From NCBI GenBank assembly GCA_965204715.1, contig OZ242009.1, positions 1,720,013 through 1,760,012 on the forward strand: a stretch of 40,000 nucleotides of DNA, read 5' to 3'. Made by a program: the position numbers and the translations under genes. Below, piece by piece: positions 28,792 to 30,474 of this stretch; within the stretch, counting starts at the first letter, position 1; each line of letters begins with the position of its first letter. Source of the DNA: Dehalococcoidia bacterium. GTDB taxonomy: Bacteria; Chloroflexota; Dehalococcoidia; Lucifugimonadales; UBA3495. The notes beneath the pieces are model-generated. The model was not told where the DNA came from. It saw nothing but the letters and a program-made list of their open reading frames with translations, and did not search any database.

Positions 28792-30474
28792 GTGACTAAC
28801 AAGTTGCTTATTTTGAACTGCTCAGAAGCTAAAAGGGAAACCGAGAAGCCGCTGCCTGCCCTCGAAGTGTACGATGGCCCTTACTATAGAGTGCTGAGAA
28901 AATACCTGCGAGAGTATCAATGGCCCGAGAACGTATCCATAAGCACTCTGTCCGCCAAACATGGGCTTATCGGCGTAATCACTGATATCCGAACATATAA
29001 CATGCGGATGAACCGTAAGCAAGCTGAGGCTAAGGCACAAGACTGCAGCAGAGTCCTACACAAGTGGGCCAGTGACCACAGCAGTGCCCACGTAGCAGTG
29101 GGCAACGAATACGCACCGGCTATCGCACCGGCGCTTCAATGCTCAGGACTTGACACTGAACACTTCCGCGGTGCCATAGGGCTCAAACAAAGTCAAGTTA
29201 AGGCGTTTCTCCATGGGCAACCCGCCAAACGCAGGGAACGAGCAGTCCCCGAGCGCAGACCCGGACCCCTGCGCTACTTTTTGCCGGACTGGGATGACCT
29301 GCTGGACCCGGGGTTTGATTTTGAAAACGACGAGTTTTCCGGCTCAGACCGGACGATGCGCGGAGACCTGCATTGCAATTCCCTGATGCAGCCAGCACCG
29401 ATGTGCGACGGAATACTGGTCAGCCTGGCGCAGCACCAGACCTCCAAGGGTCCATTGCGCAAACTCGAAGGTACTGAAAGTGCATCTCTTGCCCCGATTA
29501 GATTGAGGGAGTTTTACGGCCTCCGGGGCGGCCAAATGTTGTTCGGAGATTGCGGTGCCTTCAGCTACGTCAACGAAGAAACTCCATCAATTTCCACAGA
29601 CCAAGCCATCGCACTTTACGACCTTTACAACTTCGACATGGGAGCCTCCGTGGACCACATTCCATTCGCCGTCTTCTCCGAGGAAGAAAGGCAGCGGCGA
29701 GTGGAGATCAGTTGCCAGAACGCCGAGGAATTCATCAACGCGTGGGCCAGTCGCGGAAAGCCTTTCACTCCAGTCGGTTCTATTCAAGGAGTCAGCGCGG
29801 AACAATATGCGGAGAACGTGCAAAAGTACTACGAAATGGGATACCGCCATTTGGCAATCGGAGGGATGGTGCCGCTTAAAGACCAAGCGGTGTTGGAGAT
29901 AGTTCGGGCGATAAGTGAGACTGCCAACCGGTTGCCTCAGCAGCCTTGGATCCACTTATTCGGCATATATCGCCCCAAACTGCAACCTGAGTTCCGGGCT
30001 TTGGGAGTAGACAGCTTTGATAGCGCATCGTACTTCCGGAAGGCGTGGCTCCGTTCGGACCAGAACTACTACAGCGCAGATGGTCAATGGTACGCTGCCA
30101 TCAGGGTGCCAATGACCAAGGACCCTCGAACCCGAAAGAAATTGACGCAGACCATGGCAGACACAACTGGCTTGGAGGACCAGGAAAAGTCGGTACTACG
30201 CCTGCTAAACCAATACGGCAAGGGTACGGTCGGCGTCGACGATGTACTAGACGCGGTGCTTGCCTACGACGAGCGTTTACATCGCTCCAGCGAGATCTCG
30301 TCTATGAGGGACAAGTACCGAAGGACACTGGAGGACAAACCTTGGTTAAAATGTCGATGCACGTTTTGCAGCGAACTGGGCATCCATATCCTAATCTTTC
30401 GCGGGGGAAACCGTAACAAGCGTCGAGGCGCTCACAATACGGCTATGTTGTACGGGGGCCTAGCGGTCAGCTAA
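28792..30474 (+). CDS. Fusion protein: N-terminal DUF6884/YaaA-like domain + DpdA/TGT-like (tRNA-guanine-transglycosylase fold) domain
   Basis: - **Start:** the GTG at 28792 is preceded by GGAGG with a 7-nt spacer.
- **N-terminal domain, aa 1 to ~150:** 'LLILNCSEAKR...LPALEVYDGPYYRVLRKY...ISTLSAKHGLIG', an S-x-x-K start plus an 'ILSAKhGL' pattern.
- **TGT-fold landmarks from aa ~160:** 'FGDCGAFSY' (position of the catalytic-Asp motif DSGGFQ), 'GSIQG', 'LAIGGMVPL', 'IHLFGI' and 'VDSFDSASY'.
- **Zinc motif:** the canonical TGT motif 'CRCTFC' (30352-30369) followed by 'RRGAHN'. Confidence 0.8.
   Translation: MTNKLLILNCSEAKRETEKPLPALEVYDGPYYRVLRKYLREYQWPENVSISTLSAKHGLIGVITDIRTYNMRMNRKQAEAKAQDCSRVLHKWASDHSSAHVAVGNEYAPAIAPALQCSGLDTEHFRGAIGLKQSQVKAFLHGQPAKRRERAVPERRPGPLRYFLPDWDDLLDPGFDFENDEFSGSDRTMRGDLHCNSLMQPAPMCDGILVSLAQHQTSKGPLRKLEGTESASLAPIRLREFYGLRGGQMLFGDCGAFSYVNEETPSISTDQAIALYDLYNFDMGASVDHIPFAVFSEEERQRRVEISCQNAEEFINAWASRGKPFTPVGSIQGVSAEQYAENVQKYYEMGYRHLAIGGMVPLKDQAVLEIVRAISETANRLPQQPWIHLFGIYRPKLQPEFRALGVDSFDSASYFRKAWLRSDQNYYSADGQWYAAIRVPMTKDPRTRKKLTQTMADTTGLEDQEKSVLRLLNQYGKGTVGVDDVLDAVLAYDERLHRSSEISSMRDKYRRTLEDKPWLKCRCTFCSELGIHILIFRGGNRNKRRGAHNTAMLYGGLAVS

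Follow-up and report, generated by a model that had tools for sequence, protein, structure and literature searches.

A natural DUF6884::DpdA fusion as the putative modification arm of a compact 7-deazaguanine DNA-marking cassette

Can a single bacterial protein both insert a 7-deazaguanine into DNA and finish the mark? The question is raised by a gene in a stretch of 40,000 nucleotides from the genome of a Dehalococcoidia bacterium (GCA_965204715.1, contig OZ242009.1, forward strand positions 1,720,013 to 1,760,012; hereafter the window, numbered from its first letter). This gene (28792..30474, forward strand) encodes a protein of 560 amino acids in which a DUF6884 domain precedes a DNA-guanine transglycosylase of the DpdA type, an assignment drawn from the open reading frame list, its translation and Pfam, NCBIfam and PADLOC matches. 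To our knowledge Dpd is the only cellular system that marks DNA with 7-deazaguanines, and the form that has been studied relies on DpdA, DpdB (an ATPase) and DpdC as three distinct proteins, with eight restriction genes besides. A preliminary description of the locus had proposed a DpdC-like::DpdA fusion that would explain why separate dpdB and dpdC genes are lacking. As judged from its sequence, the N-terminal domain is a minimal DUF6884 that belongs to the DpdC superfamily without being a close relative of DpdC. This membership, with the fusion to DpdA, points to one protein that may well both insert and finish the mark, a reading to which we give an even chance, conversion of the preQ0 nitrile by the N-terminal domain being its most likely form.

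Both domains are read in one unbroken frame that opens with a GTG, 7 nt downstream of a canonical ribosome-binding site (GGAGG, 28780..28784, forward strand) read directly from the DNA. The same start point is found in 60 homologues, which open with 'MxKxLLILGCS'. The DUF6884 domain is of the minimal 'short' type and occupies residues 3-143 (28798..29220), a basic linker 'PAKRRERAVPERRPGP' follows at residues 144-159 (29221..29268) and the DpdA domain extends over residues 160-554 (29269..30453); coordinates 28792-29270 thus correspond to residues 1-160 of the open reading frame. The sequence strings quoted in the preliminary description are all present, and the separate N-terminal domain of about 150 residues and the basic linker that it recognised are both real: stand-alone relatives align with the domain end to end, its structure is predicted with high confidence and the NF041059 model begins at residue 160. 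Only R148 is invariant in the linker, which is the sole poorly conserved, low-confidence segment between the domains, with a predicted local distance difference test score (pLDDT) of 73 for the block 151-160 in the full-length model. An alignment-based scan of genome contigs recovered the fusion from 63 species genomes, where a scan with the single protein found none; in 61 of the 63 loci the N-terminal domain and the DpdA core are immediate neighbours, one locus is cut off by the contig end, and in another (L109) some 2.3 kb lies between the domain and the DpdA core downstream of it. That the fusion is an artefact of a sequencing or assembly error or of a wrong start is barely conceivable, given the uninterrupted frame, the ribosome-binding site, the same adjacency in 61 of 63 independent genomes and more than 120 clusters of proteins of 558-604 residues; nothing was found in its support, though a split pair of genes does exist elsewhere.

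The identity of the N-terminal domain is clear at the family level. Residues 7-123 match PF21818 (DUF6884) with 42.3 bits against a gathering score of 30 (E 1e-10, profile positions 3-118 of 135), and the resemblance to DUF6884 put forward in the preliminary description is therefore significant by hidden Markov model (HMM). The domain is also matched by the PADLOC candidate family PDC-M57A (E 2.5e-8) and by phrog_5935 (E 3e-13), a family of unassigned function in PHROGs. HMMER, run with residues 1-160 over 1.8 billion representative proteins, returned 1,116 relatives, most of them stand-alone proteins of 140-260 residues that align end to end with residues 3-142, and comparison with stand-alone DUF6884 proteins of 145 residues by hhalign gave a probability of 100 (E 4e-65). 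Since stand-alone DUF6884 proteins of 140-160 residues align over their whole length, this is a whole separate domain and no chance resemblance. According to the Pfam curators, DUF6884 is distantly related to YaaA and is marked by CxxxK and LSAxxG motifs (PMC11701544); both are found here, the first as C10-S-E-A-K14 directly after strand beta-1 (28819..28833, forward strand) and the second as L53-S-A-K-H-G58 after strand beta-2 (28948..28965, forward strand), each picked out by conservation. C10 and K14 are invariant among 41 fused or split homologues, as are Y27, S54 and Y69. In 57 sequences made up largely of stand-alone DUF6884, K14 never varies and the conservation of C10 is 90% or higher, and the set of residues that are invariant or nearly so in DUF6884 comprises C10, K14, Y27, G29, S54, A55, G58, Y69, G104 and Y107. 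An AlphaFold2 model of residues 1-150 (pLDDT 95.5, predicted template modelling score (pTM) 0.89) shows a compact five-stranded alpha/beta domain whose conserved residues lie at the C-terminal ends of the strands, where the pocket of a Rossmann-type fold is normally found. For the full-length model the pTM is 0.88, a value suggestive of a fixed packing between the two domains.

The DpdA half resembles characterised DpdA along its entire length. It matches NF041059, the bacterial DpdA equivalog, with 364.6 bits against a threshold of 200 (profile positions 1-400 of 406, E 6e-109) and the PADLOC DpdA model with E 2.5e-103, and it aligns over the full length of the sequence of S. Montevideo DpdA (PDB 7UI4; E 3e-69), with a transglycosylase (TGT) Pfam match at residues 267-418. 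Through this alignment D253 (29548..29550), within 'GDCGAF', is equivalent to the general acid/base Asp95, D288 (29653..29655) to Asp130 of base recognition and D410 (30019..30021) to the covalent nucleophile Asp256, while a zinc site C521-x-C523-x2-C526 ... H548 (30352..30435; all on the forward strand) aligns with the corresponding 7UI4 motif. F257 aligns with Phe99 and G357/G358 with the Gly loop. All of these residues are invariant in 60 homologues. The roles of the DpdA aspartates, and catalysis via a covalent C1' intermediate, have been established previously (PMC10164549), and with its catalytic residues intact the DpdA domain looks active. Two positions depart from the S. Montevideo enzyme. 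His181, a base-recognition residue, is replaced in the whole fused family by an invariant glutamine (Gln332, 29785-29787), as in tRNA TGTs, and Leu236 is replaced by Phe390.

How close the N-terminal domain stands to DpdC is a more delicate matter. DpdC was first assigned to DUF328 (PMC5699537; PMC12839542) and a survey from 2025 lists 'DUF6884, e.g. dpdC' (PMC12235509); the statement in the preliminary description that DpdC is DUF328-related accordingly agrees with the literature (PMC5699537), and DpdC also matches DUF6884. Conversion of dPreQ0 to dADG in DNA has been shown only for the DpdC of S. Montevideo, whose activity on preQ0-DNA is independent of DpdA and DpdB. An authentic DpdC is encoded directly upstream of dpdA-dpdB on the Enterobacter plasmid pPOL9A (PADLOC DpdC E 6e-142, DUF6884 E 6e-5). 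This gene (Enterobacter cloacae, NZ_CP086409.1; L045:7959-8912) is annotated as a 'hypothetical protein' with a start placed 105 nt downstream of the correct one; taking instead the GTG at L045:7959, which is preceded by a G-rich box, restores 'MSNINLITTCTNGK', which includes 'CTNGK'. In the restored protein C10 and K14 bear residue numbers identical to those of the fusion, and an 'LSAGLG' is present as well. Many homologues of this DpdC have a precomputed PF21818 match, and none among those listed has one to PF03883. Across 74 DpdC sequences the residues conserved at 95% or above are C10, K14, Y61, G63, S84, A85, G88, Y99, G161 and Y165, which correspond to C10, K14, Y27, G29, S54, A55, G58, Y69, G104 and Y107 of the N-terminal domain. 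Stand-alone DUF6884 proteins are linked to DpdC by hhalign (probability 91, E 9e-7), and the kinship of the fused domain with DpdC is remote and transitive through them. The likeness to YaaA/DUF328 that had also been proposed is upheld to the extent that DUF6884 is called a distant relative in the literature, but the direct match to PF03883 falls below the cut-off (15.4 bits against 29.6, E 0.014). The alignment of 'LLILNCSEAK' with the N-terminus of YaaA was not recovered, as HMMER instead aligns residues 7-83 with positions 58-138 of the YaaA profile, although given the insertion after the first strand in DpdC the original alignment may be structurally right.

If the two activities are joined as we favour, the DpdA domain would, by homology, exchange a guanine in DNA for preQ0 and the N-terminal domain would then act on the newly inserted base while it is in DNA. 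The most likely outcome would be attack on the preQ0 nitrile and its hydration to the amide (dADG), as carried out by DpdC. C10 could serve as the nucleophile and K14 as acid/base, in a manner resembling the thioimide chemistry of QueF and QueF-L, for which attack of a cysteine on the preQ0 nitrile is documented (PMC5485725). Fusion would tether the finishing enzyme to the DNA-bound transglycosylase, and such tethering would explain the absence of the insertions and C-terminal extension of DpdC.

Several observations weigh against this reading. No significant match of the N-terminal domain to a DpdC profile was found in PADLOC, the best being PDLC02813 with E 0.051, and direct comparison of the fused domain with DpdC by hhalign gave a probability of 22 (E 1e-3) over 48 columns. 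The domain, at 145 residues (ending at about residue 143), is about half the length of DpdC at about 318. No publication on the catalytic residues or mechanism of DpdC was found in the accessible literature. DUF6884 is carried by 37 of 401 genomes of the same phylum, and of the 29 stand-alone loci retrieved from this phylum, none lies within 1.5 kb of a TGT or que gene; because the identical conserved residues occur in DUF6884 proteins lacking any such neighbour, the pocket on its own is not specific to preQ0. DUF6884 is a broad family, most of it without a visible link to 7-deazaguanines, and as most of its genes have no link to a TGT the chemistry of DpdC is not simply transferable to the N-terminal domain. 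Of the proposed DpdC-like::DpdA fusion, what stands is the common superfamily, the shared core residues and the link to DpdA, but not a significant direct match to DpdC.

The N-terminal domain could also be a non-catalytic module for DNA binding, base flipping or targeting that gives DpdA access to guanines in duplex DNA and partly compensates for an absent DpdB, with the product remaining dPreQ0. YaaA binds DNA, and for DUF6884 a positively charged DNA cleft and nucleotide flipping have been predicted (PMC11701544); some dpd islands yield only dPreQ0 (PMC12235509), DpdB is missing from the source genome and from 63 of 63 related loci, and most DUF6884 genes are without que or TGT neighbours. 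Such a role leaves the pattern of conservation to be accounted for, as C10, K14, Y27, S54 and Y69 are invariant, form a cluster like that of an enzyme pocket and are identical to those of DpdC, itself an enzyme, and the DpdAs of phages function with no such domain. The N-terminal domain has no ATPase or nucleoside triphosphatase motif, so that the ATPase activity of DpdB could not be replaced by it, and the candidate role of a stand-in for DpdB was rejected for this reason. We regard the targeting module as unlikely, while by no means negligible. A different role, the shielding or processing of abasic or damaged sites left by abortive transglycosylation, has a model in YfjM of B. subtilis, a DUF6884 member that was picked up for its interaction with abasic and RNA-base lesions (PMC11701544), and catalysis by DpdA does pass through a covalent C1' intermediate (PMC10164549). 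It leaves unexplained both the relationship to DpdC, which acts on preQ0-DNA without need of DpdA or DpdB, and a DUF6884 gene that heads a phage preQ0 operon, and its chances appear slim.

Comparison of predicted structures brings archaeosine synthase (ArcS) into consideration. The top eight matches of the N-terminal domain model in BFVD are viral proteins named DUF6884 or YaaA (E 8e-12 to 4e-7). Against the PDB no fold comparison was significant (all E >=8.5e-3) and YaaA (5CAJ) lies outside the top 50 matches. The best PDB match is 2q07 (AF0587; E 8.5e-3, probability 1.00, TM 0.53), which is homologous to the core (DUF5591) of the ArcS of phage nt-1 (E 3e-8) and carries 'LLLPCTARKPYLTSRTH', including 'PCTARKPY'. 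This structure, labelled 'protein of unknown function', is thus a homologue of the DUF5591/ArcS core with the PCx3KPY motif, and it outranks YaaA as a fold match of the domain. The nt-1 ArcS core itself appears in the BFVD match list (E 0.087, TM 0.52). The ArcS motif PCX3KPYX2SX2H sits in a Rossmann-like catalytic extension of the enzyme (PMC5699537). DUF6884 and the ArcS-type core have in common a hydrophobic strand, C-x3-K and then I-[IL]-S-...-Y-D; of the ArcS motif only the strand-C-x3-K part is present in the N-terminal domain, the KPY, S and H being missing. ArcS, like DpdC, works on the nitrile of preQ0 that is already within nucleic acid.

At the level of sequence, hhalign against the single nt-1 ArcS sequence gave a probability of 0.4, an hmmsearch for the link placed it at rank 399 among 2,480 decoy open reading frames (no signal), a scan of viral contigs with the nt-1 ArcS core yielded no matches and searching the PDB sequences with a profile built from the DUF6884 alignment yielded none either. 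As neither hhalign nor hmmsearch gave a sequence signal, the link to ArcS is one of fold and motif. It is tentatively suggested, and with more doubt than conviction, that DUF6884 (including DpdC) and the ArcS core form one ancient 'strand-C-x3-K' Rossmann-like family that attacks the nitrile of preQ0 installed in nucleic acid, the fusion then being a DNA-directed, domain-swapped counterpart of archaeosine synthase. Were this true the product need not be an amide and could be an amidine or an adduct unseen in cellular DNA. The narrower proposition, that the N-terminal domain of the fusion attacks the nitrile in the manner of the ArcS core and yields a product other than the amide, such as an amidine (dG+, of archaeosine type) or an adduct with an amino acid, draws on the 2q07 match, on the presence of the nt-1 core in the BFVD list and on the position of the ArcS motif. 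We consider it distinctly unlikely in view of the missing sequence signal, the missing KPY, S and H, and the amide made by DpdC, the sole characterised member of the superfamily.

The functional link between DUF6884 and DpdA is solid, being seen in four independent ways: the short fusion, a long fusion, a split pair and a phage gene cluster. The short fusion, present in more than 12 phyla (Chloroflexota, Latescibacterota, Acidobacteriota, Planctomycetota, Actinomycetota, Bacillota, Nitrospirota, Pseudomonadota, Bacteroidota, Spirochaetota, Verrucomicrobiota and others), is represented by at least 120 homologue clusters (90% identity) of 558-604 residues with full coverage. In the split version a gene for a DUF6884 protein of 146 residues lies directly upstream of one for a TGT of 344 residues (L012-L014). 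Long-type fusions have an N-terminal part of 280-315 residues and include a protein of 691 residues on a plasmid of Picosynechococcus PCC 73109 (DpdC models E 4e-11) and one of 709 residues in G353 (E 1.5e-9); their neighbours differ from those of the short fusion and they look like an independent fusion event. On the Picosynechococcus plasmid (L046:1074-9403) the 691-residue fusion is followed by two DEAD/DEAH helicases flanking a second TGT paralogue of 307 residues, and this layout is a different compact Dpd-like arrangement. In Acinetobacter phage HD01 a homologue of the N-terminal domain (HD01_00030, 152 residues, L110:4986-5444; tblastn E 2e-5), annotated as a 'hypothetical protein', heads a queE-queC-queD-folE-tgt cluster and may be an unrecognised DpdC-like step in the phage 7-deazaguanine pathway. 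The survey of fused versus split versions suggested in the preliminary description has thus turned up fused, split and long, DpdC-sized types. DUF6884 homologues also occur in mycobacteriophages, in over 100 genomes that are about 40-45 kb long. In two loci (L010 and L011, both at 8001-8561) a gene of 186 codons whose product is 82% identical to the N-terminal domain lies amid transposase genes with no DpdA after it, a picture that suggests a fusion gene reduced to a truncated remnant. Fusion proteins are named simply 'DpdA' by NCBI, and no published description of a DUF6884::DpdA fusion or of its cassette was found in the literature searched.

In the window the fusion gene lies in an island of low GC content (0.53 against 0.62) beside an integrase. 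It is followed on the same strand by a gene for a UvrD-like superfamily 1 helicase (30494..32668; PF00580, E 1e-50), found in 56 of the 63 related loci and mostly directly downstream, and by one for a PD-(D/E)XK nuclease of Cas4/AddB-like type with a Cys-cluster (32679..33584; PF12705, E 8e-19), for which tblastn gave 54 of the 63 loci and clustering of open reading frames 55. In the related loci too, helicase and nuclease follow the fusion on the same strand, mostly at once. An extra QueC, the preQ0 synthase (33856..34644, forward strand; TIGR00364, E 7e-56), is an accessory partner present in 12 of 63 loci. The source genome (4.31 Mb, one contig) holds no homologue of dpdB, dpdC or YaaA/PF03883 and only one DUF6884, and it has a canonical tgt and a separate housekeeping queC-queD-queF cluster to supply preQ0. 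Among the related loci DpdB, DpdC and DpdD were found in none of 63, DpdK in one and DpdJ in three. The absence of separate dpdB and dpdC genes noted at the outset thus holds for the entire source genome; the fusion can explain why dpdC is missing, yet it leaves the lack of dpdB unexplained, as the N-terminal domain is without an ATPase motif. With no DpdB partner, any dependence on ATP must be met otherwise or be unneeded. The fusion would on this evidence be the modifying component of a mobile cassette that it forms with the helicase and nuclease genes, a set of three that operates without DpdB and uses preQ0 of the host, here presumably topped up by the extra QueC.

Some variation surrounds the cassette. 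Ten loci, mostly of Latescibacterota (e.g. L049:11631-15362), have a HerA-like (DUF87) ATPase and an unassigned protein of 635 residues between fusion and helicase, which looks like a sub-variant of four or five genes. Eight loci (e.g. L050:9172-9864) have a queuosine-precursor transporter of the YhhQ type (Vut_1, PF02592) just upstream of the fusion. In the window a protein of 1,126 residues at 34861-38241, with a sacsin-type ATPase and NOV_C, adjoins queC and matches PADLOC TmtA (Tiamat; E 5e-114). The pair of QueC and sacsin-like genes is also seen beside the cassette in L002. TmtA was rejected as a conserved partner, since none of the 63 loci contains it, even with the threshold relaxed to E 1e-2.

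Fusion and cassette together make up a widespread variant, as yet unstudied, of a known bacterial defence system that marks DNA. The family packs the modification arm into one polypeptide without DpdB, is paired only with a helicase and a nuclease and is spread over more than 12 phyla. It offers a compact, readily cloned model for the insertion of preQ0 into DNA without DpdB, for the role of the DUF6884/DpdC active site and for self/non-self recognition by a minimal 7-deazaguanine restriction system. It is also the best functional handle on the large, uncharacterised DUF6884 family.

Among known systems the closest relatives of the N-terminal domain are the short stand-alone DUF6884 proteins (YfjM of B. 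subtilis, phrog_5935, PDC-M57A), equal to it in length and motifs; unlike the fused domain these are free-standing and mostly without TGT or que neighbours. With DpdC it shares the DUF6884/DUF328 superfamily, C10-x3-K14 at the same numbering, the LSAxxG, Y-x-G, I/V-x-P-Y and G-x-x-D-Y core residues and a genetic tie to DpdA, but it is without the insertions of about 34 and 27 residues and the C-terminal extension of about 140; DpdC is free-standing in a system with DpdB, whereas the domain is fused to DpdA in a system without it. The second half is like bacterial DpdA (7UI4; NF041059) in its full-length match, three aspartates, Phe99, GG loop and CxCxxC...H zinc site, and the fusion differs in the added N-terminal domain and in having Gln332 for His181 and Phe390 for Leu236. 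Long DpdC::DpdA fusions of the Picosynechococcus type, of which the 691-residue protein is annotated 'DpdA', match the short fusion in domain order and in the two families joined. ArcS likewise combines a TGT fold and a Rossmann-like C-x3-K domain in one polypeptide whose substrate is preQ0 already in nucleic acid, but the domain order is reversed, it acts on tRNA and contains PUA domains, and base exchange is not the function of its TGT-like domain. Finally, where the Dpd restriction-modification system (dpdA-K) has DpdB and the dpdD-K genes, the fusion loci have a UvrD-like helicase and a PD-(D/E)XK nuclease instead.

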